Of a stretch of DNA of 64,000 bases, positions 3,340-33,049 are shown piece by piece. The stretch is taken from NCBI GenBank assembly GCA_964291655.2, contig OZ219802.1:2144001-2208000 (forward strand). The letters run 5' to 3'. The DNA is from Chloroflexota bacterium (GTDB lineage Bacteria > Chloroflexota > UBA11872 > VXOZ01). Position 1 is the stretch's first letter. Each line of letters starts with the position of its first letter. The position numbers were made by a program, and so were the translations under genes. Under the pieces are notes generated by a model that was given only the letters and a program-made list of their open reading frames with translations, did no database searches and had not been told where the DNA came from.

Positions 3340-3466
3340 GTTTGGTAGGGCGTAGTAGGCGCCCTCAACGCCGTTTGTGTTTGACAAGAGACTAGGCGCA
3401 GCCACCTCAGCACAGCCCTCCCGCCTGTTCTACTGCACACTGGCGCATCAATTGGGCGAACCAATG

Positions 3467-3495
3467 TTGACGCAAACGTCATGTTAATATATATT
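3467..3495 (+). promoter_or_regulatory. Sigma70-type promoter with an overlapping palindromic operator candidate
   Basis: TTGACG-17 nt-TATATT ~50 nt upstream of ATG 3545; inverted repeat TGACG-caaa-CGTCA (3468-3481) covers the -35. Confidence 0.55.
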
Positions 3496-3544
3496 GCCCA
3501 TTTAGAGTGATTGACTTCGCGTAGTTTGTCAGGAGTGAGCCATC

Positions 3545-4933
3545 ATGGTTACCCGACGAAGCTTTTTGCGCTTTAGCGGTGTAGCGGCTACGGCGCTGGT
3601 TGCTGCCGCGTGCGGCACGGTGCAGACCGCCCCGGCGGCTGAAGAGCCCGCCATGGAGGAGAAAGAAGCCCCCAAGGAATCCGCCCAGGAGGCTCCCGCC
3701 AAGGAGGTGCGGAAGCTATCCATCAATAGCTACGGCAACGCCGCGGTGCTCGAGCGTTATGTGCGCGTCTTAGGCGTGTTCAACGAGACGTTTGCCGGTG
3801 AGTATGAGGCGGAAGCGACCATAACGCCGTTCGCCGAGTACAACCCCAAGCTCATTTCTCAGATTACGGCGGGCGTGCCGCCGGACGTCTGGAACCTGTG
3901 GGCGCAATTCAAGTCCAATTACGTGGAGCGCGGCCTTGTGCTCGACATAACCGATCGTGTCAAAGCGAGCGCGACTGCCAGCCTGGACCACTATGTCCAG
4001 CCGATGCATGAGGCCATGTCGTATCAAGGCCGCATCTGGGGCACGGCACAGGACTTCAACGGCACCCTGATCTATCTCAACCAGACCATCTTCCAGAACG
4101 CGGGATTGGAATTGCCGGCCGAAGGCTGGACGATGGACGATCTTCGCGACATTGCGAAGCGCACCGTCAATCCGGAGGAGAACATCTGGGGCGGCAAGAA
4201 TCTTGCAAACAACACCGGCTCTGACAACTTCGCGGTGATGTGGAACTACGGCCAACACTTTTGGGTGGACGACGACCAGGCCAAATCGTTGGTGAATAGT
4301 CCGGCCGCCGTGGCCATGTATACCATCTATCAAGAAATGGCGTTTGCCGACCGCAGCATGCCGTCGGCGGCCAATCCCCAGGCTGAGGGCCTCGGTTCCC
4401 ATCAAGGGTACTATGCCACGTGGGACGCCTGGGGCAACGAGCCCTGGTGGATAAATTTCCGTAACGAGGGCAACGTGCCGTTCGAATGGCAGGCCCATAC
4501 GTATCCCGCAGGCCCCATGGACCAGAAGCACTTCTCCCAAGGCCACCTGTGGTCGATTGCGGAATCGCATCCGGACCACGATACCGCTTGGTTCCTTGCC
4601 GAGTGGATCGGCGGCATCGAGGGCTGGAAACAATGGGTAGCCTTGGGCCAGGGTCAGCCACTGCCGGTTTCCGATCGCGCGCTGTGGGAGCAGTATTATA
4701 GCTTCCTGGAGCCGGATAAGGCGCAGATACAGACCGACTTCATGCTGGAACGCATGTACAACGGCCTGGCGTTCAACTTCCAGTACTGGCCGACGTACGG
4801 CGACTGCAGCGGCATCATGCGCGAGGCACATCAGGTCATCTTTGGCGAGTCGCCCGGCGAGGTGAAGTCCAACCTTGACGAAGCCGCCAAGCGCATGACG
4901 GCGGTTCTGGAGGAGTACAAGAGCAATACGTAG
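3545..4933 (+). CDS. ABC transporter extracellular solute-binding lipoprotein (sugar-type, Tat signal)
   Basis: TRRSFL twin-arginine motif, lipobox AAAC, Ala/Glu/Pro linker, AGVPPDV and WTMDDL SBP motifs. Confidence 0.9.
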   Translation: MVTRRSFLRFSGVAATALVAAACGTVQTAPAAEEPAMEEKEAPKESAQEAPAKEVRKLSINSYGNAAVLERYVRVLGVFNETFAGEYEAEATITPFAEYNPKLISQITAGVPPDVWNLWAQFKSNYVERGLVLDITDRVKASATASLDHYVQPMHEAMSYQGRIWGTAQDFNGTLIYLNQTIFQNAGLELPAEGWTMDDLRDIAKRTVNPEENIWGGKNLANNTGSDNFAVMWNYGQHFWVDDDQAKSLVNSPAAVAMYTIYQEMAFADRSMPSAANPQAEGLGSHQGYYATWDAWGNEPWWINFRNEGNVPFEWQAHTYPAGPMDQKHFSQGHLWSIAESHPDHDTAWFLAEWIGGIEGWKQWVALGQGQPLPVSDRALWEQYYSFLEPDKAQIQTDFMLERMYNGLAFNFQYWPTYGDCSGIMREAHQVIFGESPGEVKSNLDEAAKRMTAVLEEYKSNT

Positions 4934-4993
4934 GCGCTCCTGTTGGCGGCTGCGAGCATCGTGACAAAGCTGTCTTGAGCATCAACGAAGTAA

Positions 4994-5025
4994 GGGGGGG
5001 CACGGCATGCCGTGCCCCCCCCCCC
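4994..5025 (+). terminator. GC-rich hairpin (REP-like or terminator) after the SBP gene
   Basis: gggggggcacggc-at-gccgtgccccccc inverted repeat. Confidence 0.5.
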
Positions 5026-5421
5026 TATCTTCTCTATATGCATAGGCGAACTTCGCAAGAACCTAGTGGTTCGATGTTGTTGTATTTATGGGTAGCGTAG
5101 ATTCACACGGGACGTGCGCGTAACCTGCGCCGTTTCCTGAGCTGTCTCTTACACCTACCCATCATTTCAATATAGTTGGACCACTTGCCTTCTGCCGTCT
5201 AACTCCATCTCCCTGGAGAGAGAGTTGGGGTGAGGGCACTGGCGGGAAACTGTCTACTCCGGGCAGCATCAAAGAGGCCGCAAATCCCCCCTCCCCTCAT
5301 GTCCTTGCTTCGTGTGCGTGGCAAAGCGTTGACACAAAGCCCTTGCATCTAACTTGGCATGCTGATACATGGAGAGAGGCAGCGTATCGCCGGTCTAGGC
5401 TGTTTCACCCGCGCTGCCTTA

Positions 5422-5575
5422 GGAGAACTTTGCATAAGCTCACTTTAAGGCAGAGGCACTCCCTCTCCCCAAGGAGAGGGAGAAGTATCCTTCCCATGAG
5501 ACCATAGTTCGCTAAGGTCTCCTCTGGGAGAGGGGGAAATGTGCTTCTCTCGAGACCAAGTTACGCAAAGGTCTG
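5422..5575. mobile_element. Degenerate GAGACC-family MITE/REP composite
   Basis: gagaactttgcataag ... gttacgcaaaggtct ends resemble the 139-bp MITE TIRs; internal ccctctcc/ggagaggg hairpins. Confidence 0.45.
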
Positions 5576-5590
5576 CTTTGGAGCAGCGAG

Positions 5591-6502
5591 CTAGAGTCCG
5601 GCGCTAGCCACAATTTCGTCGATTTCCCGCATCTGCTGGGGTGAGAGTTCCCAGTCGCCTGCGCCGAGCCAGCCTTCCACCTGCGCGGGACTCTTGGCGC
5701 CAACCAGCGCTGTCGTCATGGCGGGGTGCGCCAGTACCCACGCGATATCAAGCTCGATGAGCGTATGACCGTGGTCGGCGGCATAGGCGGCGAGTTGCTT
5801 TGCCATGCGGATGGTCCGCTTGAACTTCTCGCCCGCAAACCGCTCGTTCTGGCTGCGGATGTCGTCTGGGCCGAAAACATGGTCTTCTTCGTAGCTGCCC
5901 GTGAGCAGCCCCTGACCCAAAGGGGCGTACGCCAGCACGCCAATGCCCTGCTCTTGGCAGAACGGCAAGACATCCGCCTCGATCTCGCGGTCGAGCAAGT
6001 TGTAGCGGGGCTGATCGGAGTCCACGTGCCGCACCTGCAAGCACGCCTGCATCTGCTCGGCGGAGAAATTGGATACCCCCGCGTAGCGCACCTTGCCTTG
6101 TTGAATCAAGTCGTCGATGGCCTGCATGCTCTCGGCAAAGTCCATCTCGTCGCTGGGCCAGTGGATCTGATAGAGGTCGATGTAGTCGGTATGCAGGTGC
6201 TGCAAACTGCGTTCGGCGGCAGTGAGCAGGTCGTCGCGGCGCCAATTCTCCGGCAAGACTTTCGTCGCGATGAAGACCTCGTCGCGCCGGTTGCCCACGG
6301 CCTTGGCCACAAGCTCCTCGGAGAGGCCGAAACCGTACGCCTCCGCCGTGTCGATAAGAGTCACGCCGCCGTCCACCGCCCGTTGAATCGCCGTCACGGC
6401 GTCGCGCTCTTCCACCGGCCCCAGCTTGCCCGCAATCGGCCATGCCCCAAAGCCGAGCACCGAGACTTCCGGGCCGTTCTTACCAAGTCTTCGTGTCCGC
6501 AC
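5591..6502 (-). CDS. Aldo/keto reductase
   Basis: LGFGAW, DTAEAYG, IATK, DYIDLYQIHWP, GVSNF, YNLL and APLGQGLL motifs. Confidence 0.95.
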   Translation of the reverse strand: MRTRRLGKNGPEVSVLGFGAWPIAGKLGPVEERDAVTAIQRAVDGGVTLIDTAEAYGFGLSEELVAKAVGNRRDEVFIATKVLPENWRRDDLLTAAERSLQHLHTDYIDLYQIHWPSDEMDFAESMQAIDDLIQQGKVRYAGVSNFSAEQMQACLQVRHVDSDQPRYNLLDREIEADVLPFCQEQGIGVLAYAPLGQGLLTGSYEEDHVFGPDDIRSQNERFAGEKFKRTIRMAKQLAAYAADHGHTLIELDIAWVLAHPAMTTALVGAKSPAQVEGWLGAGDWELSPQQMREIDEIVASAGL

Positions 6503-19740: not shown

Positions 19741-20096
19741 TGGAACCGAAAATTGGAGGCTGAGCTCCTGGGTCGGGTCGGCGTCGCAGGGTGGTACCTT
19801 GAGTTTGCGGACGAAGGCTGGTGAAACCTAAGGAGACGTTAGGGTAAGCGTACGGGGATAGTGCCCTAGTGGCTGCGGAGAGTTTGGGCAGTAAACATAC
19901 TGGGTGTCGCACTGGGTGGATTTGATCGCATTTCCTGCCGGCAGCGACACAGCAAGGCGCGGATTTGCGTGCATGTGCTCCGTCAGAACTAGCGCAGCGT
20001 TTCGTACGATATCCTCACAAAACTGCACCTTTGATACACATTGCCACCGCACGTAGACATGGGCAGAGCGGGCTCCAACCGGCGCACTAAGAGCGG

Positions 20097-20126
20097 TTGA
20101 CACGTGAAGCGACGGTATGGTTAACT
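20097..20126 (+). promoter_or_regulatory. Promoter-like/parS-like repeat unit 3 (TTGACA-18 nt-TTAACT)
   Basis: gagcggTTGACAcgtgaagcgacggtatggTTAACT; the first 18 nt are identical to unit 2. Confidence 0.55.
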
Positions 20127-20575
20127 AGGTACTCGCAACTTGATACTGAACCATGGCGGTACGGTCATTGCCGCAAGGTGACCAGGTAGCATAAGGAGAA
20201 GTGTACAGAGGCGTGCCCTTCTTCGACAGGGAACGTCAGACTGGTTTAATTTTTGCTTTTTGTGGTTGATGTGAGAACGGCGTTGGAGGGGCGGCACAGG
20301 TTACACTCGTGTAGCAAAGTCGCTTCCGCTCCTGAGTGCAGCGAAGGTCTTGGTGTATGCAGTCATTTCGAGACGGCTTTTCATGTGCCTCTTGTCGTCT
20401 CAAACGGTCTGCATGAGTTGCCAGGCTCGAGCACGTAGGGATTGCAGAGTGTTAGCGCCGTCGTAAGTGACAATGGGCCCACCGAGGGTCGGAACTGTTT
20501 GGTTTCTGCCGGGCACTGACGTAAACGCCTATCTCGGCAGTATCTTTGCTGTAGAGCGTGAGCCAAGGCTTGCGC

Positions 20576-21261
20576 TCATTTCATTTTACTCGACGATATC
20601 TGTGCATTTATGCCCGCCAGGTACGCGGAGCCGGGTCCGATCGGTTTCAATTCCAGGGGCACAGCGGAACCTCTTGACTTCTCCTTGGGGTCTAGCCCCG
20701 CACGAAGGGCGTGCTCTCGCCCAGGAGACTTCTGCATTACTCGTGCCGCGACGTACACATGACGGTCGGCCAACGCCTTAAGCTCCGCGTTCAACGCCGT
20801 GCAGTCCGCTTGCAGGTCTTTCCGTTCATGCTTCGATAGGCTCAGCGCGAACGGATTACAATCTCCCGGTTTTTGCCCTCGCAGTTTTAATGCACCAGCA
20901 CGCCGCCGACTACAAGATAGTGCACGTGACGCTCACTTGGAATAGGCGTCTTGTGCACTCCCCACGGCACCTACGTTGCAACGTGCCAGCCGGAAGAGGG
21001 CGGCACGCTATGGTACGGCGGGTGCGGCGTGTCCACAGACGGGATGTGTTCAATGCTCTAGATCGGCGCCGGTGTACCGGGAAGACTGCGGAGGATGCCG
21101 CTGCGCTAGGCCGCGCGGCCAATGAGCTAGAGCAAGAGAATCACGCCCGCGAAAGAGACTATCGCGTGTACGTGCTGCCGTACGGGGTTGCGCACGCGGT
21201 TGCGGGCTTGAGCTGCCTACTGCTCGCGGCGGTGTGTGCGTTGGGTGGGTTGGCCGCTCAC
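20576..21261 (-). pseudogene. DUF3105-family protein pseudogene
   Basis: Frame from GTG 21261 (GTGA overlap with the mnmG stop) reads TM segment AIVSFAGVILLL*LIG, then EHIP...PYHSVPPSSGWHVAT*VPWGVHKTPIPSERHVHYLVVGGVLVH*NC, matching the DUF3105 YnsxPPTSGxH...WGv...E..VHNLEHG....YNC pattern. Five TAG and one TAA in frame; REP inserted at ~20822-20855. Confidence 0.75.
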
Positions 21262-23222
21262 CGCGCCGTTGCCTTGGCCGCATGCCGGTGTACGTGCACC
21301 ATGAGCACGGCAATATCCGCCGGGGTGACTCCGGCAATGCGGGCGGCCTGGCCGATCGTGCGCGGCTGAAATTGCCCCAGTTTTTGTCGCGCTTCCACTC
21401 GCAAGGAGGGAAGCTGGTCGTAGTCGAAGTCCTGCGGCAGTGCCATCGCCTCCATGCGCGCCATCTTTTTCACCTGCGACTGCTGGCGCTCCACATAGCC
21501 CGCATAGCGCGCTTCAAGCTCGATTTGCGCAACGACCTCGGGATCGAGCTCGTCCGCCTGCTCGCCCATAAGCGCGGCAACGACTGCGTAGCGCCCGCGC
21601 GGGCGCTGCAGGAGGCTCAGCGCATTCGTCTGGCTACTGAGCGGCTGCACGCCGGCTCTTGCCAGTGCGCCATTTGTACTGAGCGATGGCGTAATCCAGT
21701 GGCTGCGGAGACGCTCCAGCGTGCGCCCAATCTGATCGCGCTTTGCCATGACACCCGCATAGCGCTCTCCGTCGATCAGGCCGACCTCATACCCAAGCGG
21801 CGTGAGGCGCAGGTCGGCGTTATCGTGGCGCAGCAGCAACCGGTACTCTGCGCGGGAGGTGAACAGGCGATATGGTTCTTGATGCTCCTGGCTTACGAGG
21901 TCATCCAGCATCACGCCGATGTATGCCTGGTCGCGCCCTAACACGACGGCCGGATTGCCCTGCACGCGCCGGGCGGCGTTGATGCCGGCGATGAGTCCCT
22001 GCGCCGCTGCTTCTTCGTAGCCGGAGGTGCCGTTGATCTGACCGGCAAAGAAGAGGCCGGAGACTGACTTGGCCTCCAAGGTGACGTTCGTCTGGTCCGT
22101 GACCACGTGATCGTACTCGACGGCGTAGCCGTGCCGCACAATCTCCGCGTTGCGCAGCGCCGGAACGGTGCGCAGCATCGCCGCCTGCACGTCTTCCGGC
22201 AAGCTGGTATTCGCTCCCTGCACATAGACCTCATGCGTGGTATATCCCTCCGGCTCGAGGAAGAGTTGGTGGGAGTCTTTGTGCGCAAACCGCACGATCT
22301 TGTCCTCGATAGAGGGACAATAGCGGGGTCCTGTTCCGCTGATGCTACCGTTGAACATGGGCGCCCGGTGGAGGTTGTCGCGAATGATGTCGTGCGTGGC
22401 AGGGTTGGTGTGCGTCAAGTAGCAGACCATCTGCCGCCGCCAGGGCGTATCGATCTGGAAGGGGTACACCGGGTCCGGCTCCTCCCGCCGGATTTCTTCT
22501 TCCCGTAGGGGCGTAAATGAGAATCGCAGCGGCTGTTGCGACCCGGGCTGCGGCGTGGTAAGCGCAAAGTTGATGCTCTCTGCGAGGACGCGCGGTGGGG
22601 TGCCGGTTTTCAGGCGGCGTAGTTGAAAGCCCAGCCCGCGCAATGCGTGTGAAAGACCCTGGGCAGGCGCTTCTCCAGCGCGTCCACCCTCAACACGCCT
22701 CTCGCCCGTAATCAGCATGCCTTGCAGGAAAGTGCCGGTAGTCAGAACGACAGTCGGCGCACGGAACGAGTGGCCGGCCTTGGTCTTTACGCCGGTGACG
22801 CGGCGGCGCTCCTCAGACGTATTGGTCGTGATGAGGTCTTCAACCAGGCCGTCGTGGATGGTCAAGTTTGCCTGGTTTTCCAGCACTTGGCGCATTGCTT
22901 GGGCGTAGAGGTGCTTGTCGCACTGGGCGCGCAGCGCCTGTACTGCGGGGCCCTTGCTGCTGTTGAGCAAGCGAATCTGGATAAAAGTACGGTCGGTGAT
23001 CTTGCCCATTTCGCCGCCAAGGGCGTCAATCTCTCGCACAAGATGCCCCTTGGCCGGTCCCCCAATCGAGGGATTGCAGGGCATGAAGGCGATGCGCTCG
23101 CGGTCGCCGGTGACGACCAATGTGCTGCATCCCATGCGCGCCGCCGCGAGCGCCGCCTCACAGCCGGCATGGCCGGCGCCAACGACTATTACGCCATAGT
23201 GCGCTGGTTGACATTGGTTCAT
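21258..23222 (-). CDS. mnmG: tRNA uridine-5-carboxymethylaminomethyl modification enzyme MnmG (GidA)
   Basis: VVGAGHAGCEAA, MPCNPSIGG.AKG, SKGPAV, KTGTPPR, GPRYCPSIEDK, AGQINGTSGYEEAAAQG. Confidence 0.98.
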   Translation of the reverse strand: MNQCQPAHYGVIVVGAGHAGCEAALAAARMGCSTLVVTGDRERIAFMPCNPSIGGPAKGHLVREIDALGGEMGKITDRTFIQIRLLNSSKGPAVQALRAQCDKHLYAQAMRQVLENQANLTIHDGLVEDLITTNTSEERRRVTGVKTKAGHSFRAPTVVLTTGTFLQGMLITGERRVEGGRAGEAPAQGLSHALRGLGFQLRRLKTGTPPRVLAESINFALTTPQPGSQQPLRFSFTPLREEEIRREEPDPVYPFQIDTPWRRQMVCYLTHTNPATHDIIRDNLHRAPMFNGSISGTGPRYCPSIEDKIVRFAHKDSHQLFLEPEGYTTHEVYVQGANTSLPEDVQAAMLRTVPALRNAEIVRHGYAVEYDHVVTDQTNVTLEAKSVSGLFFAGQINGTSGYEEAAAQGLIAGINAARRVQGNPAVVLGRDQAYIGVMLDDLVSQEHQEPYRLFTSRAEYRLLLRHDNADLRLTPLGYEVGLIDGERYAGVMAKRDQIGRTLERLRSHWITPSLSTNGALARAGVQPLSSQTNALSLLQRPRGRYAVVAALMGEQADELDPEVVAQIELEARYAGYVERQQSQVKKMARMEAMALPQDFDYDQLPSLRVEARQKLGQFQPRTIGQAARIAGVTPADIAVLMVHVHRHAAKATAR

Positions 23223-23481
23223 GGAGGTTTCTGTGACCTGTTGCTACTTCAATCGCATGAAGGCGAGGAGGAACGCGCAAACATGAGCCGGACAATCTCT
23301 ATCGAGCATATACGACGCGCTGTCTACGAAACAAGCAATTCTCACCCGAAAAACTCTGTGTGAGTGTGACGAGGGCGTGAAAAGAGGAGCGCGTGGCTAA
23401 GCTCCCCTCGCCTAGGTCCTCTCCCCTAGGAGACCTTGGTGTAACCTTAGCGGAAACGAGAGAATGCCCTCTTCCTCGACG

Positions 23482-23620
23482 GAGACCTTTGCGTAACTCC
23501 GTCATTCCGGCGAAAGCCGGAATCCAGAGCGCCTTTACAACTAAAGACAGCATGATGTCAAGTCATTTCACCCCCATCCCAACCTTCCCCCTCAAAGGTG
23601 AAGGGTTATGCAAAGGTCTC
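23482..23620. mobile_element. 139-bp MITE, copy 1 (GAGACCTTTGC TIRs)
   Basis: TIRs gagacctttgcgtaac / gttatgcaaaggtctc; flanking direct repeat ctcgacg; internal gtcattccggcgaaagccggaatccag REP. Confidence 0.85.
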
Positions 23621-23951
23621 CTCGACGGGAGAGGGCTAGGGTGAGGGTGAATCTCCTGAATTCTCGCCATAGCATACCGATATTTGCTCGGCTACATCTT
23701 GACACTGCACCAGCGCAAGGGGCCACTGCAACATAGAGATCCCCTCACCCCGACCCTCTCCCCGAGGAGAGGGAGGTTTTCTCGCCTACAGGTGAGTTAC
23801 GCAAAGGTCTCCACAGGGAGAGGGCCGGGGTGAGGGGATTTCTGCTTAACACGTCATCTCTTCCAGCAAGACCGATACGCAAGCGTGCAATTACGGGAAT
23901 AGAGCCCCCAAATTGCGGGAATCTCCCCCTCACCCTAACCCTCTCCCGCCG

Positions 23952-24090
23952 GAGACCTTTGCGTAACTCCGTCATTCCGGCGAAAGCCGGAATCCAGGGC
24001 GTGTTTACACCTAGAGATAGCATAATGTCAACTCGTTTCACCCCCATCCCATCCTTCCCCCTCATAGGTGATGGGTTATGCAAAGGTCTC
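23952..24090. mobile_element. 139-bp MITE, copy 2
   Basis: Same TIRs and length, several internal substitutions; flanking direct repeat cgccg. Confidence 0.85.
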
Positions 24091-24419
24091 CGCCGGGAGA
24101 GGGGACTTTCCCGTCCCGGCAAGGCTAAAGCAAGGGTCTCCTCGACGGGAGAGGGCGAGAGCCTGCCCCGCACTCGATACAGCGTATCGAGTGCGGGGCG
24201 GGTTCCGAGCACTTCGGCAAGCTCAGCGCAGGCCTGTCGATGGGCAAGACCACAGGGAGCGATGCACTTGTGAGACAAGCTCACAGGGAGAGGGGGGACA
24301 ATTTCTTTCGCGGGCTTGGGTTTCGCAGTGGTCTGTACAGGGAGACGAGGGTTGGGTGCGCCCAGGTCGAGTTGCGGAGATGCCTTCGCAGGAGTAAGGG
24401 AAAATTGTTGACATCGGCA

Positions 24420-25049
24420 CTAGAGAGTGCGCAGGGCCCGCGTTGCGGCTTCGACGTCCTGTGCGCCCACCACAGCCGAAACGACGGCGATGCCGTCTGC
24501 GCCCGCCGCTTGTACGGCCGCGGCGTTCTCTGCCGTAATGCCGCCGATGCCCACAAGAGGAATGGCAGGCGCAGCCTCCCGCAGCGCGCGGACCATGGCG
24601 GGGCCGACCGGAGCACCGGCATCGTCTTTCGTGCGCGTCGCATACATGGGGCCCACGCCGAGATAGTCGGGACGGGCGGGCAGCACCGCCGCCAACTCAG
24701 CGAGATTGCCGGCCGACATGCCGATGATGGCATCGTCGCCCAGCAGCTTGCGGGCGACCGCAGGCGGCAGGTCGTCGTGACCGAGGTGCACGCCGTCCGC
24801 GCCGCACGCAAAGGCAATGTCCACGCGGTCATTCACGACAAAGGGGATGCATGCAGTCCTGCAGAGTTGGGATACGGCCGTCGCCGCAGCCAATACGTCA
24901 CGGTCGGGAGAACGCTTGTCACGCAATTGGAGCATGGTCGCCCCACCGGCAATTGCCTGGCGGGCAATTGCCACTACGGAGCGCCCTCCGGCTACTGCCG
25001 GATCGAGCACAACGTAGAGGCGCAGATCCAGTGTTCGTCCAGGGCTCAT
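24420..25049 (-). CDS. thiE: Thiamine-phosphate synthase
   Basis: LYVV, QLRDK, VNDRVD, ADGVHLG.DD, DYLGVGPMYAT.TK, VGIGGI, GIAVVSAV. Confidence 0.96.
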   Translation of the reverse strand: MSPGRTLDLRLYVVLDPAVAGGRSVVAIARQAIAGGATMLQLRDKRSPDRDVLAAATAVSQLCRTACIPFVVNDRVDIAFACGADGVHLGHDDLPPAVARKLLGDDAIIGMSAGNLAELAAVLPARPDYLGVGPMYATRTKDDAGAPVGPAMVRALREAAPAIPLVGIGGITAENAAAVQAAGADGIAVVSAVVGAQDVEAATRALRTL

Positions 25050-25708
25050 TGGCAAGAACAGACGTTCAGAGTCTCACGTAAGCGCGCAACAGCTTGGAGG
25101 AATCGCGGATGGTCTTGTGCTCTCCGCCTCGAGCGCCGAGTCTGAGAAGAATTGTCCTACGGCCCGCAGTCAAGCGTCAAATCTCTCCCGTCCGGTAGAT
25201 GGAATTTTGATGGCTCCCGGCGAGGGATTGGCCTGATCTGCCAACCAAGCGCACGGTCGAGTCTCGCCGATCTTGCTATTGCACTATGGGGCAATTCAAA
25301 GTCATAGGGGATTGTGCAAGAGATCCTCGGCCAATCGCCGATCATGGATCGGCAAGGGCTTCGCGACGCCTACTCACCACGAACGGCAGAGACAAGCTTA
25401 CCCCGAACGGCAAAAGTGAAGACTAATCGAATGAACGGATTGTGAATTCGTCGGAAGAGCCAGATTCCACTCGTCCTGAGCCCGTCGAGGTGCTCAGCAC
25501 AGGCTTGACGAAGAGTCAAGAACGAACGGAAACGCTTTTAACACAACTTCGTAGAGTACAGCACTGACAGCGCCTATCCCGGATCCCACCGGGAACTCAT
25601 ACAACAAGGATTGCCAGTCAATCGGTTAGTTGTGGGCGTATACACCTTATGTTACACTACGGGGATAGATTGGAGTGCTTGGCCGCACAAAGCAACAGAG
25701 CAAGGGGT

Positions 25709-26485
25709 ATGGCGCTCACAATTGCCTGTGCCAACCAAAAGGGTGGTGTCGGCAAGACGACGACAACTGCTAATCTAGGTGCTACTCTCTCGTTGATGGG
25801 TAAGCGCATTTTGGCGGTAGACATGGATGCTCAGGCCAATTTGACCGCTCACTTTGGTCTGGAGCGGGAGTTACAGACCTCTGTAGCGAACGCGCTGCGC
25901 GATCGCAAGGTGGAATTGCCCATTTACCGCGTTGAAGACGACGCGGGCATGTCGATTGACATCGTGCCTGCATCGTTGGAACTCGCGAGTGTAGAGTTTC
26001 AACTGGCAGCAGTCATAGGTCGCGAATTGCGCCTGCGCGAGCACTTGGACAAATTCCAGGATCAATACGACTTTATCCTAATCGACACGCCTCCCTCACT
26101 TGGTTTGCTCACGATAAACGCGCTGGTAGCCGCAGACTGCGTGATTATTCCTACCGAAGCGCGTTTCTTCTCCCTGCAAGGCCTGTACATGTTACAAGAC
26201 ACCATTGGAGAGGCGGCAGCGCTCAATCCGAAAATTGAAATACTGGGTGTGTTACTTAGCAAGTACGACCGCCGGCTGCGCGAAGAAAAGGCGGTTTGGC
26301 AGTACCTGCACGAACGTTGGGGCGACCGCGTCTTTACTACCGAGATTGGGATAAACAGCAAGATTTTGGAGGCCGCGTCGGCGGGTGTCCCGGTCAATGC
26401 ATACGCAGGCGGTAAAAAAGCAACCCATGCATATCAGCTACTAGCCAGAGAGGTGTTAGACCGTGTCGAAGCGACCCGGCTTTGA
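25709..26485 (+). CDS. parA: ParA/Soj-family ATPase
   Basis: Deviant Walker A NQKGGVGKTTT, DMDAQANLT, YDFILIDTPPSLGLLTINALVAAD; ATG 25709. Confidence 0.93.
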   Translation: MALTIACANQKGGVGKTTTTANLGATLSLMGKRILAVDMDAQANLTAHFGLERELQTSVANALRDRKVELPIYRVEDDAGMSIDIVPASLELASVEFQLAAVIGRELRLREHLDKFQDQYDFILIDTPPSLGLLTINALVAADCVIIPTEARFFSLQGLYMLQDTIGEAAALNPKIEILGVLLSKYDRRLREEKAVWQYLHERWGDRVFTTEIGINSKILEAASAGVPVNAYAGGKKATHAYQLLAREVLDRVEATRL

Positions 26486-27644
26486 TCCCGAGCGGTTGGA
26501 GAACGTGAAAGATAGCACGCGTCCCCGCCCGGTGGTGCCTGACATGGTTGTTCCCGGCTCCCATGCGCGCGAGGCGCGCGGGGTTATTCAAATTCGCATC
26601 ATTGGTGTGGGCGGATGCGGTAGCAACGCGGTCAACCGTATGATCGAATCCAACGTGGTTGGTGCTGCATACGCGGTCATTAATACGGATGCGCAGGCGC
26701 TCCAGGTCTCACGCGCGGAAGACAAACTCGCCATTGGAGATCGCATCACCCGTCTTCGCGGCACGGGCGGACAACCGGAATTGGGCCAACGGGCGGCTGA
26801 AGAGAGTGTCCAAGACATTGAGCAACTCGTCAGTGGCGCGGATATGGTCTTTGTGACTGCGGGCATGGGCGGCGGCACCGGCACCGGCGCGGCGCCTATT
26901 GTCGCCGAACTAGCCAGGCGCCACGGCGCGCTTACGGTGGGAGTCGTCACGCTGCCCTTCATGTTCGAGGGTCGCCCACGGCAGCGCAATGCGGCTGCCG
27001 GCCTGCAAGCGCTCCAACAGCACGTGGATACACTCATCGTCATTCACAACGACCGCCTCCTGGCTGCAGTGCCGGCTTCGGCGCCGATGACGGAAGCGTT
27101 TGCTCTGGCTGATGAGATGCTCGTAAACGGTGTCAAGTCCATTACCGAGCTTGTGACCACGACAGGGATTATCAACGTAGACTTTGCCGACGTGCGTTCG
27201 GTGATGCAGGATGCGGGAACTGCCATGATGGGGATGGGCATCGGGTCCGGCGAGAATCGCATGCTGCTGGCAGTGGAAGAAGCGATGAAAGATCCCCTCT
27301 CCGATAAGGCCGTCAAGGGCGCTCGGGGCGTGCTGTTGAACTTCCGCGGCGGACCCGACATGAGTATTCAGGAAATCAGCGCCGCCGCAGAAATGGTTAG
27401 CACCACGGTAGACCGCGAAGCCAATATCATCTTCGGCGCGTCTATCGATCCGGCGAACCAGGAAGAAGTGCAAGTTACGCTGATTGCCACCGGCCTTCCT
27501 GGCGAACAGCCGCAGCGCGCCGGTAGGCGCGGCCCGACACGCGACGATGAGCCCACCGTCCGGCCGGAAGTCGAGGTGGAAGAGGCGGAGGTAGAAGACC
27601 TGGACTTGCCGGCGTTTCTGCGCCGCCGCCGCCCCAGTCGGTGA
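26463..27644 (+). CDS. ftsZ: Cell division protein FtsZ with N-terminal extension
   Basis: IGVGGCGSNAVNRM, tubulin signature GGGTGTG, PF.FEG, T7 loop INVDFADV, VTLIATG, C-terminal DLDLPAFLRR; GTG start preceded by GAGAGGTG inside parA. Confidence 0.96.
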   Translation: MSKRPGFDPERLENVKDSTRPRPVVPDMVVPGSHAREARGVIQIRIIGVGGCGSNAVNRMIESNVVGAAYAVINTDAQALQVSRAEDKLAIGDRITRLRGTGGQPELGQRAAEESVQDIEQLVSGADMVFVTAGMGGGTGTGAAPIVAELARRHGALTVGVVTLPFMFEGRPRQRNAAAGLQALQQHVDTLIVIHNDRLLAAVPASAPMTEAFALADEMLVNGVKSITELVTTTGIINVDFADVRSVMQDAGTAMMGMGIGSGENRMLLAVEEAMKDPLSDKAVKGARGVLLNFRGGPDMSIQEISAAAEMVSTTVDREANIIFGASIDPANQEEVQVTLIATGLPGEQPQRAGRRGPTRDDEPTVRPEVEVEEAEVEDLDLPAFLRRRRPSR

Positions 27645-28022
27645 CTTTCGCTCCTAGCCCCGCCTGCATTGCACCGAGTCTCTAGGACTCAAGATAGGAT
27701 TCCCTGGCTTGGCTTGCCTACGGCGGCATGGCTGGTGTAAGTATGCGCCTCACTCTTGTTTCCTCAGCTCGAGAGAACATGCAGCAAAGTTCCGCAGGCG
27801 TGTGTCGCCTCTAACCAATCTTCGTAGAGGCAAGAATCTGGTTTCTAGAGAGACGTTTGCGAAACCGGTCTCCCTGCCGGTTAAGCCCCTTCTTCCCAGG
27901 TAGAGGAAATCGGTACCGTTCCAACCCGATTTCAACCGATTGGCACAGCTCCGCAGGGCTTGCCCCGTACCAGGATTCAGGGGTTCCCCATGCGGGCGGA
28001 GAACTCTACTGGAAGCTACGAG

Positions 28023-28826
28023 TTATGGGCAAGGTTTGGTCGCCCGTATGGAGAACATCTGCGGGATAGATTCGTTTTTCTCTGGGAACCGCCACCAGCC
28101 GTCATCCCCCTGCACCATGTTGGGCAGCGCTTGATAGTGGCAAAAGGGAAACTCATGGAGGAACTCGATCCTGAGTCCGGAGCCAACTAAGGCCGTGACA
28201 ATCTCACCGAGGCTGTGCTGCCACTCATAGTTGGGACTCGCGATGGTTTCGCTACCGGCATAGGACGGCCCATCGCCCGGAAGGTACAACTCTTGGCAGA
28301 AGTAGCTGTACGACGGCAGAGCCTCACCACTTGCGGAAGGTTCGAGCGTTTGCAGGACCGGGTGAAATTCCACAATGTAGAACGTCCCGCCCGGTTTGAG
28401 GTAACGGATTGCCACCTCGGCCCAGCGGTCAAGGTCCGGCAACCAGCACAAGATGCCGTATGACGTGAACACAATGTCGAATTCTTCTGTGAGCACGTTC
28501 GGCAGATCGTAAAGGTTAGAACAGAAAAAGCGCGCGTCCGTGCCGACTTCAGCATTCAACGCGCGCGCGAGTTCAACTGCGTCGTCGGAGAAGTCCACGC
28601 CGGTCGCCTGTGCGCCCAGCCGCGCCCACGACACAGTGTCCAGACCAAAGTGGCACTGCAAGTGAAGCAACGACTTACCGGCTATGGGGCCGACCTCTTC
28701 CCGCTCGATGTCTTTAAGGGTTAACTGGCCCGCCTTGAAGCCGTCCACGTCGTAGAAGTCGGAAGCTGCGTGAACAGCAGTTCTTTCATTCCAGTTAATC
28801 CGGTTCGCTTCGAGGCGTTTATCCAT
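28023..28826 (-). CDS. Class I SAM-dependent methyltransferase
   Basis: LHLQCHFG.D, GVDFS, FDIVFTSYG...WLPDL, LKPGG.FY..EFHP. Confidence 0.92.
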   Translation of the reverse strand: MDKRLEANRINWNERTAVHAASDFYDVDGFKAGQLTLKDIEREEVGPIAGKSLLHLQCHFGLDTVSWARLGAQATGVDFSDDAVELARALNAEVGTDARFFCSNLYDLPNVLTEEFDIVFTSYGILCWLPDLDRWAEVAIRYLKPGGTFYIVEFHPVLQTLEPSASGEALPSYSYFCQELYLPGDGPSYAGSETIASPNYEWQHSLGEIVTALVGSGLRIEFLHEFPFCHYQALPNMVQGDDGWWRFPEKNESIPQMFSIRATKPCP

Positions 28827-28977
28827 GGGAATGGTACGTGTTGACTAATCCGTTTTGACAGTTTCCCGCTTTTGTCGCCTTGCCAAGATTGAGAGTGCTC
28901 TTGCAACCGTCATTTGTATGTTGTAAGAAGCAGGCAAATGCGGAATGTAAAAGGGTAACACGAGGGGCGCGTGGTCC

Positions 28978-29048
28978 GTCATTCCCGCGCAGGCGGGAAT
29001 CCATCTCCCTCTGTGCTCCCTGGACTCCGGCTTTCCCCGGAGTGACGG
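28978..29048. repeat. Inverted REP doublet (GTCATTCCC...GGGAATC family)
   Basis: gtcattcccgcgcaggcgggaatcca ... tggactccggctttccccggagtgac. Confidence 0.7.
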
Positions 29049-29070
29049 ATTCGGGATGAACGCGGGCCTT

Positions 29071-30036
29071 TTATGTGACGATGTTCTGCGGACGGCCTTC
29101 CAAGAAGGCGATGGTGTTCGAGACCGCGCCCTCGTTCAGCAACTCGATGCCTTCCGAAGTCTGGTCAGCCAGGTGCGGTGTGAGAACCACCTGATCGCAA
29201 GTCAAGATTGGGTGATCGGGCGGCAGGGGCTCCTGATCGAAGACATCAAGACCGGCGCCGGCCAGGTGCTCGGATTGCAGCGCAGCAACCAGAGCGGCGG
29301 TATCCACCAGGTCACCTCTACCGGCGTTGATGAGGAGCGCGCCCGGCTTCATCAAGCCGAGTTCCCGCGCACCGATGAGGTGATGACTTTCATCGCTGAG
29401 CCGCACGTGCAAGCTCACAACGTCGGATTCCCGCAGCAGTTGCTCGAGTTCAACAAACTCGACACCAAGCTCGCGCGCCCGTTCCGGCGAGGGGTTGAAC
29501 GTCCACGCCAGGCAGCGCATGCCGAGTAGATTGGCTACGCGGGCGACTTCACGGCCCACGTTGCCCGTGCCGACGACGCCGAGCGTCTTGCCGCTGAGCA
29601 TGACGTTCTGCTTGAGTGTCCAACGACCGGCCTTGAGTTCGCCGGTTTGGAACGCCGTGCGTTTGGAGACGGCAAACATGAGCGCGATGATGTGTTCGGC
29701 AACCACGGGGGCCGTCCGCCCCGGCTGGTTGGCCACGGCCACGCCGCACGCCCGCGCCGCCTCAACGTCAATCGAGTCGACGCCAATGGAGCACGTGGCA
29801 ATGAGGCGCAGGTCGGGCAGGGCCTGCAGCGCCGGCGCAAACCACTTGATCGCCCCGCGCGTGTTCAAGATGACGTGCGCGCCTTCCACGCGCTTGAGCT
29901 GCTCCTCCATGCTCTGCGGCCGGTCGAGATAGAGGTCAACGTCGCCGTACGGCTTGAGCCGCTCCAGATGTGGCGAACCCTGTATCTGGGGCGGAGAATC
30001 ACCGGGAACGACGATTTTCAAAAGTTTGTCTGCCAT
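29071..30036 (-). CDS. D-isomer-specific 2-hydroxyacid dehydrogenase
   Basis: GKTLGVVGTGNVG, SDVVSLH, MKPGALLINAGRG, GAGLDVF..EP, TPHLA; start ATG 30036. Confidence 0.93.
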   Translation of the reverse strand: MADKLLKIVVPGDSPPQIQGSPHLERLKPYGDVDLYLDRPQSMEEQLKRVEGAHVILNTRGAIKWFAPALQALPDLRLIATCSIGVDSIDVEAARACGVAVANQPGRTAPVVAEHIIALMFAVSKRTAFQTGELKAGRWTLKQNVMLSGKTLGVVGTGNVGREVARVANLLGMRCLAWTFNPSPERARELGVEFVELEQLLRESDVVSLHVRLSDESHHLIGARELGLMKPGALLINAGRGDLVDTAALVAALQSEHLAGAGLDVFDQEPLPPDHPILTCDQVVLTPHLADQTSEGIELLNEGAVSNTIAFLEGRPQNIVT

Positions 30037-30507
30037 AGTCACATCCTTAGTTGGGTCGTAGCATTGACCTAGAACTCTACAATCTGCATAGCAATTAGGA
30101 GGCGTGCACGTACGCCGTTGGCAGTCGATTTCACGGGAACGAGGTTGTCGCCGAAGGCGAGGCAACTGAACTAGTGCAGTTAGGTTTGCTGGGCCTCAGG
30201 CGTCCGCCGCGGCGGATCGGCGAACGTGGCTTGCTTTGCCTATCTTAACTACATGCGCTGTATATCGTCTAGTCTATGCCCAGTGGGCTGGAAAATCTCC
30301 CGCAGCATACGGAATGTCAGGAGTCTCCAGATCACGCGCCAACTGGCAGCATTTGTGGGTAAAACAATTGTCAGTAGTGCGGTCCGAACACGTGTATAAT
30401 TACTGGTGCGAAGGGCAATGCGGTGAGCCCGCCGCACGGCAGACGACCGTTATTTCCGCGAAAGCGGACTCCTAATTCTACACGTAAAGTTGAGGTTAGC
30501 TGGACTC

Positions 30508-31080
30508 ATGCGTGCGATTCTGAGCGTATTCGACAAGACTGGCATCGTCGAGTTTGCGGTAGGGCTAGCCAAGTTGGGATGTGAAATCGTCTCTACCGGC
30601 GGGACCCAGGGTGCGATAGAAGCAGCAGGCATCCCCGTCGTCGGCATCAGTGACGTTACCGGTTTTCCCGAGATTCTGGATGGGCGCGTAAAGACGCTCC
30701 ACCCGGCGGTGCACGCCGGCATTCTGGCGCGGCAGGACGACCCCGAGCACGTGCAAACACTACGCGACCACGCCATCGCGCCCGTGGACGTGGTGGCCGG
30801 GAACCTCTATCCCTTTGTGGAAACTCTGAACAGCGGGGCCGGACACGAAGAAATAGTTGAGAATATCGACATCGGCGGCCCCACGCTCATACGCGCCGCA
30901 GCCAAAAACGCCGATTCCGTGCTGGTAGTGGTTGATCCGAGTGACTACGCGCCGGTGCTCGATGCGCTCGCCAACGGGCAGGTGGATGCCGCTCTCCGCA
31001 CGCGACTTGCCGCCAAGGCCTTCCGGCACACTGCCGATTACGACACGCATATTGCAGGGTATTTCAAAGCGATCTCATAG
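30508..31080 (+). CDS. purH: IMP cyclohydrolase (stand-alone N-terminal MGS-like domain of PurH)
   Basis: RAILSVFDKTG, STGGT, TGFPEILDGRVKTLHP, NLYPF, ENIDIGGPTLIRAAAKN, KAFRHTADYD; ends before the transformylase domain. Confidence 0.88.
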   Translation: MRAILSVFDKTGIVEFAVGLAKLGCEIVSTGGTQGAIEAAGIPVVGISDVTGFPEILDGRVKTLHPAVHAGILARQDDPEHVQTLRDHAIAPVDVVAGNLYPFVETLNSGAGHEEIVENIDIGGPTLIRAAAKNADSVLVVVDPSDYAPVLDALANGQVDAALRTRLAAKAFRHTADYDTHIAGYFKAIS

Positions 31081-31300
31081 AGCGCATGTGCACCAAGGTC
31101 GTTGTCCAAGACCTAACTTAGTCATCTGGCCTGTAATTCTACTCTTGATGCCAGATAAGAGTGCGGGCCCGTTCCCCGCCAATTGGCTATGTCAAGTTCG
31201 GATGGCTTAGTCGGTAATTCCATGTGATACGATGCTACCGAAGCTCTAAGCCAGAGCGAACTCGCTCTCGTGCCAAAGAGAATGAATGTGACGGCACTTT

Positions 31301-33049
31301 ATGTTGACAAAACTCACTGTCCGCAATTTCAAACGCTTTGACGAAGTCGAAATTGAATTAGGAAGTCCCGTAGCATTTATCGGCCCGAACAATTCCGGGA
31401 AGACTTCGGCGATGCAAGCACTAGCACTATGGGACATTGGACTAAAGCGCTGGAACGAAAAGCACTCTGGCAAGCGAACTCCAGAAAAGCGACCCGGCGT
31501 CACCGTTAATCGCCGGGATCTTGTTTCAATCCCAGTACCGAGTTCAAGGTTGCTGTGGCGGGATCTCCACGTGCGAAACATCTTGAGATCGGAAGGCAGG
31601 CAGGAAACCCAAAATGTAAGGATTGATGTCATTGTAGAAGGGGTCACTGGGGGTCGCCCGTGGAATTGCGGATTGGAATTCGATTACGCAAATGAGGAGT
31701 CCTTCTTTTGTCGCCCTCTTCGACTGAGTGCCGAGAAGTCACCACATCGCATGGAGATCCCAGACGAAGCTGGAAGAGTGCAGATCGCCTTCTTACCCCC
31801 AATGTCCGGTCTAGCAGCAACCGAAATACGCTTGGAACAAGGAGCGATAAACGTAAGGGTAGGCGAGGGTCGTACAGCTGACGTTTTGCGCAATCTTTGT
31901 TTGCGCATCTACGAGAGTGAGGGCCCTCCCGACAACTGGTCAAAGTTGGCAAATCAGATTCAAAACCTATTTGGCGTGAAACTGGAACCGCCGCAGTACA
32001 TTACGGAACGTGGCGAGATCTCTATGAGCTATCAGGAGAGGGATGTTAGACTCGATCTCTCCTCAAGCGGGCGTGGATTACAGCAGACAATGCTTATATT
32101 GGCATATTTGTACGCCAATCCAGGAGCGGTATTGATGCTAGACGAGCCCGACGCCCACCTTGAGATTCTACGCCAGCGCCAGATCTATCAGATCATTACA
32201 TCTGCTGCCACAGAAAGTGGTAGCCAGATAATTGCTGCAAGCCACTCCGAGGTGTTGTTAGACGAAGCTGCCGGGAAAGACATGGTAGTCGCCTTCATTA
32301 GAGAACCGATTCGTATTGACGACCAGGGTAGCCAACTCCTGAAGTCATTGAGAGACATTGGCTTCGAGCACTACTATCAGGCAGAGCAAACCGGATGGGT
32401 GCTCTACTTGGAGGGTTCGACAGACCTATCCGTATTGCAGGCCTTCGCTCGCCGTCTCAAACACAGCGAAGCAGCCCGTGCACTTGCACGTCCTTACGTT
32501 CACTACGTTGGAAACAACGTCGCAGCAATGCGTCATCACTATTACGGGCTAAAGGAGGCAATTCCAGATCTAAAGGCCGTGGCGCTATTTGACCGTATCG
32601 AATCTGGAAAGCCTGAAACAGATGAAATTACATGCTTATCTTGGCGTCGTCGCGAGATCGAGAACTACCTTTGTTCCCGAGCAACCCTAGTTGCCTATGC
32701 ACGAAGTGCGGCAGAAGCACAAGCACTTGGGCCATTGTTTGCACAAGCTGAGATTCCGCGACATGTTGAGGCGATGCTTGCGGCGATGTCAAGAATTGAA
32801 GAAGCTTTACGAACACTTGGAAAGGGATCGCCGTGGGAAGCTGATACTAAAGTAAGTGACGACTTCTTAACCCCAGTGTTTGAGGCCTACTTTGAGCAAT
32901 TGGGCCTCCCCAACCTCATGCGCAAGAAGAGTTTCTATGAATTGGCCGAACAAGTGCCGCAGGAAGAAATAGATCCAGAGATTAGCGAAAAGCTAGACGC
33001 GATTGCGAGCGTGGCGAGCAGCGTGGGAACTGAAAATAGCGATTTCTAA
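31301..33049 (+). CDS. OLD-family-like ABC ATPase with TOPRIM domain
   Basis: LTVRNFK.F, Walker A GPNNSGKT, SSGRG, Walker B LDEPDAHL, SHS, TOPRIM YLEGSTD, FDR, RREIENYL; visibly more AT-rich than neighbours. Confidence 0.8.
   Translation: MLTKLTVRNFKRFDEVEIELGSPVAFIGPNNSGKTSAMQALALWDIGLKRWNEKHSGKRTPEKRPGVTVNRRDLVSIPVPSSRLLWRDLHVRNILRSEGRQETQNVRIDVIVEGVTGGRPWNCGLEFDYANEESFFCRPLRLSAEKSPHRMEIPDEAGRVQIAFLPPMSGLAATEIRLEQGAINVRVGEGRTADVLRNLCLRIYESEGPPDNWSKLANQIQNLFGVKLEPPQYITERGEISMSYQERDVRLDLSSSGRGLQQTMLILAYLYANPGAVLMLDEPDAHLEILRQRQIYQIITSAATESGSQIIAASHSEVLLDEAAGKDMVVAFIREPIRIDDQGSQLLKSLRDIGFEHYYQAEQTGWVLYLEGSTDLSVLQAFARRLKHSEAARALARPYVHYVGNNVAAMRHHYYGLKEAIPDLKAVALFDRIESGKPETDEITCLSWRRREIENYLCSRATLVAYARSAAEAQALGPLFAQAEIPRHVEAMLAAMSRIEEALRTLGKGSPWEADTKVSDDFLTPVFEAYFEQLGLPNLMRKKSFYELAEQVPQEEIDPEISEKLDAIASVASSVGTENSDF

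Follow-up and report, generated by a model that had tools for sequence, protein, structure and literature searches.

It is an open question how bacteria without a Min system or nucleoid-occlusion factors select the place of division, and to our knowledge the cell biology of the Chloroflexota is almost unknown. In the 64-kb stretch of a Chloroflexota genome analysed here (hereafter the window; G000:C2:2144001-2208000, from a genome of two contigs, 3.47 Mb and 59% G+C), a gene for a Soj-like ATPase, named here parA2, is directly followed by and overlaps a second gene, named ftsZ2, which encodes an FtsZ. A gene for a division protein thus stands beside a parA gene, in an order that mimics parA-parB. 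Judging from the sequences, we give a probability of roughly 0.5 to the reading that parA2 and ftsZ2 form a translationally coupled two-gene operon, which would encode a positioning ATPase of the ParA/MinD type together with its own client FtsZ.

The separate ftsZ and parAB genes that an earlier note on this DNA had suggested looking for are both present in the genome. The former, at C2:338003-348181, is a canonical division and cell wall (dcw) cluster with the order mraW-ftsI-ftsW-murC-murB-(open reading frame, ORF)-ftsA-ftsZ, closed by the gene for FtsZ1 (L003:8986-10182 = C2:346985-348181), which follows ftsA. The latter consists of a canonical soj gene at C2:1616948, followed at approximately C2:1618229 by the only gene of the genome with a ParB_N domain (match at C2:1618313). 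Since the dcw ftsA-ftsZ and soj-parB genes lie elsewhere, parA2-ftsZ2 is an extra module, and the 64-kb window was found to contain neither ftsA or mur genes nor a parB gene. All elements that the note had seen at the locus were confirmed. No match to MinC or MinE was detected in the source genome, and none to MinD reached the cut-off. Contig C1 (830 kb) gave no ParB_N match and no ParA2/Soj-type match at the thresholds used.

FtsZ2 is a complete FtsZ that, by its sequence, looks competent for GTPase activity. It passes the TIGR00065 equivalog model with 388.8 bits (cut-off 295.2), contains the PF00091 (4.2e-48) and PF12327 (2.1e-29) domains, and is 49% identical to FtsZ1. Alignment confirmed that the GGGTGTG box (residues 136-142, with G136-G142 invariant in the orthologs) and the T7 loop (N238, D240, F241 and D243 invariant in the orthologs) are kept, and so is the C-terminal peptide, DLDLPAFLRRRR, which most FtsZ2 orthologs share. 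In FtsZ proteins, FtsA, SepF or MinC-type partners usually dock on this peptide.

The basic N-terminal extension described in the note is likewise real: approximately 40 residues, beginning with MSKRPGFDPERL, stand ahead of the tubulin domain, and the first 22 residues include the basic K3, R4, R11, K16, R20 and R22. In an AlphaFold2 model the predicted local distance difference test (pLDDT) score is about 81-98 for the core (in 10-residue blocks), 42-54 for residues 1-40 and 37-40 for the linker before the C-terminal peptide; the tail is predicted to be flexible and unpacked against the core. The SKRPGF-type extension is conserved: all 30 aligned FtsZ2 sequences have F7, P9 and R11, conservation of L12 and R20 is 90% or higher, and the consensus of the tail reads [KR]..G[GA]-F-[DN]-P-x-R-L ... 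R-P-x-x-[VI]-V-P-[RK]-I-[LV]. When the pattern F[DNR][PA]xR[LMP] was counted upstream of the core in distinct genes, it was found in 55 of the 56 FtsZ genes linked to ParA2, versus none of 99 unlinked ones. In the lone linked exception, L130, the motif is present in the same frame, but an in-frame stop separates it from the core. Within the source genome, FtsZ2 is the only long ORF with the motif at its start. A word-index protein search with residues 1-42 returned 18 matches, all of them FtsZ proteins and 68-100% identical to the tail, and no FtsZ with this tail was found in 72,556 plasmid records, in which none of the 117 FtsZ matches covers it.

Two observations touch this part of the FtsZ genes. 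L130 (G036:C187) comes from an 87%-complete metagenome-assembled genome, and its in-frame stop could be a sequencing error, mark a pseudogene or be read through. FtsZ1 also has a predicted N-terminal extension of approximately 35 residues; it contains a faintly similar G-R-L-D-P-R-Q-R, and F-x-P-x-R-L is absent from it.

The tail would not exist if translation started at ATG 26544, with the frame upstream of it open by chance, an alternative that the earlier note had named. This ATG is present and in frame, but it is missing in L010 and L013, and F7, P9 and R11, which are encoded upstream of it, are invariant across the phylum, whereas the GTG start is preceded by a conserved Shine-Dalgarno sequence; we therefore regard a start at ATG 26544 as extremely improbable. 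The FtsZ2 frame of the genus members reaches back just one codon 5' of the GTG. Across the phylum, FtsZ2 starts with a GTG, and its overlap with the 3' end of parA2 measures 8-23 nucleotides (nt). A Shine-Dalgarno-like word (GGAG, GAGG, AGGA, AGGT or GGTG; GAGGTG in most) starts at -16 to -11 in 25 of 26 aligned GTG-start orthologs and is encoded by the invariant E248-V249 of ParA2. Both the position of the ftsZ2 Shine-Dalgarno sequence within the R-E-V codons of parA and the 23-nt overlap given in the note agree with our coordinates (Table 1). Of the 25, three (L119-L121) have only AGGAAGT at -15; L125 has GAGGAAGTG at -16/-15, and in the same alignment no such word was seen before the FtsZ2 start of L129. 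In family f5, parA2 and ftsZ2 are separated by 45-108 nt and the tail opens with its own ATG, preceded in three f5 orthologs by GGGAGG or GGGAGC, which also argues for a genuine extension.

The start of parA2 was set at ATG 25709, and the longest possible ORF, from 25649, was not adopted, because the resulting N-terminus, M-A-x-x-I-A-x-A-N-Q-K-G-G-V-G-K-T-T, lines up with that of 29 orthologs. ParA2 matches PF13614 (AAA_31) at 3.8e-51 and 174 bits and stays below the curated NCBIfam cut-offs for partition proteins (ParA_partition, 96.4 vs 180; RepA, 113.4 vs 348; PrgP, 97 vs 400). Similarly, it does not reach the cut-off of the MinD model TIGR01968 (57.1 bits, cut-off 212.9), and its match to the MipZ family PF09140 is partial (profile positions 3-136 of 262, 45.5 bits), that to AAA_31 being far stronger. 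The closest solved relatives are Soj of Thermus thermophilus (TtSoj; 1wcv, 2.9e-44), a 'ParA family protein' (8ray) and Soj of Helicobacter pylori. ParA2 is 40% identical to the genome's own Soj and 52-63% identical to its own orthologs, and the gene downstream of it codes for FtsZ and not for a cognate ParB. The deviant Walker A motif K11-G-G-V-G-K16-T17 and the Walker B residue D126 are invariant in the aligned ParA2 sequences, and a D-R-R-L-R-E-E-K stretch is nearly so. The C-terminus is level with the end of TtSoj, and therefore no MinD-type membrane-targeting helix is present. Non-specific DNA binding by TtSoj involves a basic patch of R182, R194, R208 and R211 (PMC6393308). According to the alignment with TtSoj, the corresponding positions of ParA2 are an invariant R189, R or H at 201, I, T or S at 215 and an invariant K218, so that three of the four are basic, and nucleoid binding by ParA2 appears plausible.

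The arrangement is not restricted to the source genome. FtsZ was found in all 41 nearest genomes, in two copies in 39 of them. All 17 genomes of the genus have parA2 directly 5' of the better-matching ftsZ. Elsewhere in the class this was seen at 9 of 13 loci from other families, with canonical copies at the remaining four, and the pair was present in 15 of a further 20 class regions. Families f1, f3, f4, f5 and f6, five of the six in the class, have the pair, and the sole f2 genome has one FtsZ and no ParA2. In a sample of 401 evenly drawn Chloroflexota genomes, searched at E <= 1e-58, 96 matched ParA2. Of these, 93 did so at E <= 7e-73 with 52-63% identity, while the remaining three (~1e-59, 42-43% identity) are set off from the orthologs by a clear gap. 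Nearly half of the ParA2-positive genomes (48/93) are outside the class, where ftsZ stands directly 3' of parA2 in eight of the nine loci fetched, the ninth being cut by a contig end. Two FtsZ copies, with one abutting ParA2, were also found in each of five additional genomes from outside the class. Adjacency was thereby confirmed in ten families (f1, f3, f4, f5, f6, f27, f33, f41, f50 and f84), a count that leaves out the ParA2-positive families f7, f9, f18, f19, f34 and f79. The module is present in many single-contig genomes.

As no genome of the genus is without this arrangement and many other families share it, the pairing is beyond chance, and the parA2-ftsZ2 module is old and widespread in the Chloroflexota. 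The earlier note had proposed a search for adjacent parA-ftsZ pairs and had considered that the pairing might be absent in relatives; it is present in them. Conservation of the flanking genes is confined to the genus, and no conserved third gene was found beside the pair above the family level. ParA2 was not found near FtsZ in any of 79 best-matching loci from other taxa, including Bacillota, Cyanobacteriota, Actinomycetota, Caldilineaceae and Anaerolineae, and no wider survey outside the Chloroflexota was made.

Some loci have features of their own. In families f4 and f6 a gene for a histidine kinase of ~685 residues (GAF-GAF-HisKA_2-HATPase_c) lies 3' of ftsZ2 on the same strand (L118:4903-6951, L121:4796-6946 and L135:4808-6877, with counterparts in L116, L119, L123, L125 and L127), which is not so in the window. 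In L129 (G028:C10:360000-373000, family f3), parA2-ftsZ2 (3451-5623, + strand) is ~2.6 kb from the other ftsZ (9139-8213, - strand).

Phylogenetic analyses showed that FtsZ2 is a distinct clade. In a FastTree tree of 151 FtsZ cores, the 56 linked genes and two genes of genus g7 form one group with a Shimodaira-Hasegawa-like (SH-like) support of 100. An IQ-TREE analysis of 62 rows (quick search, LG+C20 model with posterior mean site frequencies, PMSF), in which the canonical rows include the FtsZ1 of the same genomes, split 34 canonical from 28 FtsZ2-type sequences with a support of 99 in the SH-like approximate likelihood ratio test (SH-aLRT). In these unrooted trees FtsZ2 is outside the Chloroflexota FtsZ1 and not nested in it. 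Both proteins thus form distinct groups, a statement based on the trees for FtsZ2 and on the gap in E-value and identity for ParA2.

The motif and ParA2 were also lost together. The FtsZ of genus g7 (family f3) is inside the FtsZ2 clade, has no motif and has no parA upstream (G024 and G022 examined). No ParA2 ortholog was detected in three g7 genomes (G024, G022 and G030; 83-89% complete), the best ParA matches being at ~1e-44 and 39-40% identity, which is the level of Soj. The motif was hence lost in the one lineage that lost ParA2. Genus g4 (family f4) presents another situation: none of its five genomes (G019, G025, G027, G035 and G086; four of the five single contigs, 90-96% complete) has a ParB_N match, and ParA2 itself is the sole match to the Soj of the source genome, whereas parA2-ftsZ2 is retained with its motif. 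Genus g4 therefore seems to have lost the canonical ParABS system and kept parA2-ftsZ2. Since no ParB_N is found there and ParA2 is the only Soj-like gene, FtsZ2 is the only visible candidate partner of ParA2 in g4, and the absence of a ParB_N match excludes a MipZ-like dependence on ParB in this genus.

The distribution of ParA2 was compared to that of the Min system. MinC (PF03775) is above the cut-off in 119 of the 401 genomes, that is in none of the 93 ParA2-positive and in 119 of the 308 ParA2-negative genomes. Two ParA2-positive genomes have sub-threshold MinC matches only, and no family has both systems. This pattern is suggestive rather than statistical.

Activation of ATPases by ParB, SopB, MinE, ParG and PomX occurs via short basic-rich N-terminal stretches, and the conclusion was drawn that an activator can arise from a stretch of this kind 'grafted onto an interaction domain' (PMC7993993). 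In the N-terminal peptide of ParB, a conserved Arg and a hydrophobic residue contact ParA (PMC11229316). The tail of FtsZ2 fits this class, because it is at the extreme N-terminus, disordered and rich in Lys and Arg (six basic residues out of 22), and has the invariant basic R11 beside invariant hydrophobic residues. A mechanism to which we give an even chance can thus be outlined, in which dimers of ATP-bound ParA2 would sit on the nucleoid, and the basic tail of FtsZ2 would dock on ParA2 and stimulate its ATPase in the manner of the N-terminal peptides of ParB, MinE and PomX. The resulting ParA2 pattern would fix where FtsZ2 accumulates or polymerises, with ParA2 either carrying FtsZ2, as PomZ does its cargo, or inhibiting it, like MipZ. 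FtsZ2 would then join FtsA and FtsZ1 by its C-terminal peptide and mark the division site, and the module would stand in for the absent Min system. The interpretation of the earlier note, a ParA that positions an FtsZ via a peptide, is borne out as far as the conserved pairing, the extension and the separate canonical copies are concerned, while the positioning itself is still inferential. A complex of a ParA2 dimer, two ATP and FtsZ2 residues 1-42 was modelled in a single job; its score of 0.01 counts neither for nor against such docking.

More tentatively, and with somewhat less than an even chance in our view, FtsZ2 might be a self-positioning polymer of the tubulin family that carries a ParA-activating peptide and finds its site on the nucleoid without Min, ParB or adaptors of the PomXY/MipZ type, which would make the module the main site-selection system of much of the Chloroflexota.

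Several points weigh against a positioning ATPase with a client FtsZ. The position of ParA2 that matches a conserved Lys/Arg of Soj (R208 of TtSoj) is I, T or S, and DNA binding by ParA2 is therefore not assured. The tail was considered as a relic of a ParB N-terminal peptide and this candidate was rejected, since an hhalign comparison between 29 tails of FtsZ2 and 26 N-peptides of ParB from the same class yielded a probability of 0.45%; a shared 'basic-GG-hydrophobic...L-E' layout was impressionistic only and was dropped. The notion of an FtsZ in the slot of ParB is hence right for the gene order, but no homology between the tail and ParB N-peptides could be detected. Three members of family f6 (L025, L125 and L127) keep the N-terminal motif but are without the C-terminal P-[AS]-F-[LI]-R-R peptide. 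Neither ParA2 nor MinC was found in 189 of the 401 genomes, and the f2 genome, genus g7 and G018 (genus g3, family f3) also have neither. Two MinC-positive genomes, G107 and G125, each have two FtsZ copies and no ParA2 or motif; one of their second FtsZ copies is a lineage-specific duplicate, and the other is a long branch attached to the FtsZ2 group in the FastTree tree, with an uncertain placement. The mutual exclusion of ParA2 and MinC could stem from few ancient events, as related genomes are not independent. Finally, two of the 93 ParA2-positive genomes, G132 and G228, are unpublished, and the count without them is 91/399.

The lack of similarity to ParB N-peptides would also be in line with an operon that serves co-expression only, for stoichiometry or timing, with a tail that acts independently of ParA, either in polymerisation or bundling of FtsZ2 or on another divisome or membrane partner. 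The N-terminal peptide of Anabaena FtsZ is needed for normal polymerisation and division (PMC6175996), and FtsZ1 also has its extension of ~35 residues, which is free of the motif. However, the motif tracks ParA2 (55/56 linked vs 0/99 unlinked genes), motif and ParA2 are jointly missing in g7, ParA2 has no other candidate partner in g4, and the tail is predicted to be disordered and not docked on the core. Co-expression alone thus appears somewhat unlikely. A client FtsZ could on the other hand be used in a specialised process instead of vegetative mid-cell division, such as fragmentation of filaments, asymmetric or multiple division or membrane remodelling, while FtsZ1 alone builds the normal ring. 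The retention by 39 of 41 relatives of both FtsZ2 and FtsZ1, whose gene accompanies ftsA in the dcw cluster, is compatible with this, and the GAF-GAF histidine kinase 3' of ftsZ2 in f4 and f6 hints at regulated use. We nevertheless find a specialised role unlikely, more so than co-expression, since the exclusivity with MinC fits a general function in site selection and no accessory genes are conserved beyond the pair.

In a further explanation FtsZ2 replaces ParB in DNA segregation, and filaments of FtsZ2 together with ParA2 move the chromosome or a second replicon. The gene order, the absence of Soj and ParB from g4 and the 830-kb second contig without a ParB_N match of its own would agree with such a role. 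It is nonetheless very unlikely, given that FtsZ2 lacks a DNA-binding domain, its domain matches being Tubulin and FtsZ_C alone, that no centromere-like repeats were found near the operon, that many genomes with the module are single contigs, that canonical ParB co-exists in 36 of 41 relatives searched, and that FtsZ with this tail is absent from the 72,556 plasmid records.

Among known systems, MipZ-FtsZ of Caulobacter has in common with the proposed module a nucleoid-associated ATPase of the ParA/MinD family with FtsZ as its direct contact, in a host devoid of Min (PMC11407121, PMC9897490), and the partial PF09140 match of ParA2 (45.5 bits) is a further likeness. However, the MipZ gene is away from ftsZ, its target is the single canonical FtsZ and its gradient depends on ParB, whereas the client of ParA2 would be a dedicated paralog with an N-terminal peptide of its own, and g4 has no ParB. 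In PomXYZ of Myxococcus a nucleoid-bound ParA-type ATPase likewise positions a cargo that marks the Z-ring, and the activator is a short basic-rich N-terminal peptide on an unrelated scaffold (PMC7993993); there the PomX/PomY cargo recruits FtsZ, while here the FtsZ paralog would be both cargo and activator. MinCDE also places the Z-ring with an ATPase of the ParA/MinD family and is mutually exclusive with ParA2 in the 401 genomes, but ParA2 fails the MinD model and has no membrane-targeting helix, and MinC and MinE were not found in the source genome. With Soj-Spo0J (ParABS) the module shares an ATPase nearest to chromosomal Soj and an overlapping downstream gene for a partner with a basic tail and a conserved Arg. 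It differs in that this partner is an FtsZ without ParB_N, helix-turn-helix domain or parS, the true soj-parB being elsewhere in the genome.

The dual FtsZ systems of archaea and plastids (FtsZ1/FtsZ2) also keep two complete paralogs over long evolutionary time, but the descriptions of them that were found mention neither a ParA gene in the operon nor this N-terminal motif, and the present duplication is bacterial. A conserved functional N-terminal extension on a bacterial FtsZ is known from Anabaena, where it is on the single canonical FtsZ and is reported to affect polymerisation (PMC6175996). Cyanobacterial FtsZ proteins were among the 99 unlinked ones; F-x-P-x-R-L is present in none of the eight, and there is no ParA2 at their loci. 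No description of a ParA-linked FtsZ paralog or of the F-x-P-x-R-L motif was found in the available parts of the literature searched, which included a study of the evolution of the FtsZ family (PMC9871819) and a 2024 review of ParA/MinD ATPases (PMC11407121), supplementary tables being outside the scope of this search. parA2-ftsZ2 may therefore represent division-ring placement of the ParA/MinD type in a form not described before, and not a new kind of machine. If the proposed mechanism is true, no connection from a nucleoid-patterning ATPase to the division ring seen so far would be shorter, with two proteins and no adaptor, and FtsZ would join the scaffolds that can receive an ATPase-activating N-terminal peptide. 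The module, which is small and has F-x-P-x-R-L as its sharp defining mark, would also be of interest for minimal division machinery.

The features of the locus are listed in Table 1.

Table 1. Coordinates of the parA2-ftsZ2 locus, numbered from the first position of the window
Feature	Position	Strand	Description
parA2	25709..26485	+	Soj-like deviant-Walker-A ATPase, 258 aa, ParA/MinD family
ftsZ2	26463..27644	+	Complete FtsZ paralog, 393 aa, GTG start, 23-nt overlap with parA2
Shine-Dalgarno sequence GAGAGGTG of ftsZ2	26448..26455	+	Within parA2 codons R247-E248-V249, 7 nt 5' of the GTG
FtsZ2 N-terminal tail, residues 1-42	26463..26588	+	Predicted disordered; 6 basic residues in the first 22
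F-D-P-E-R-L motif, residues 7-12	26481..26498	+	F7, P9 and R11 invariant; L12 at least 90% conserved
FtsZ GTPase core and FtsZ_C domain, residues 43-349	26589..27509	+	Domain matches; invariant G-box and T7 residues
C-terminal conserved peptide DLDLPAFLRRRR, residues 379-390	27597..27632	+	
Intergenic region 5' of parA2	25056..25708	+	Presumed site of the operon promoter

The neighbours of the operon are unrelated housekeeping genes, namely mnmG, thiE, a methyltransferase gene, a 2-hydroxyacid dehydrogenase gene and purH. A promoter scan detected no sigma-70-like site on the + strand of the region upstream of parA2, and neither the promoter and terminator scan nor the repeats around the operon gave anything above shuffled expectation. 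The search for centromere-like repeats near the operon turned up nothing beyond short repeats in two copies and a single inverted repeat of 10 nt, and an Rfam search of window positions 20000-32000 returned zero matches.

The mnmG-thiE spacer (window 23400-24160) contains dense direct and inverted repeats, with a 161-nt unit present twice and palindromic units of 30-44 nt present several times. This cluster looks like an element of the repetitive extragenic palindromic (REP) or miniature inverted-repeat transposable element (MITE) type. Peptides that recur in the spurious ORFs to which the repeats give rise include IPAFAGMTELRKG and PAKAGIQ, and ...AGMTVERR frames like those of the spacer stand 5' of parB in relatives. 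A purH-like ORF at window positions 30490-31080 ends at 196 residues and comprises the MGS domain and the first 58 of 311 AICARFT_IMPCHas positions; it may reflect a frameshift or a split gene. Sequences of window positions 25600-27700 are contained in 20 public DNA runs from nine studies, with no RNA runs among those listed. Runs labelled 'sponge metagenome' are among them and contain 44-53% of the sampled words, and four runs of one study contain all of them.

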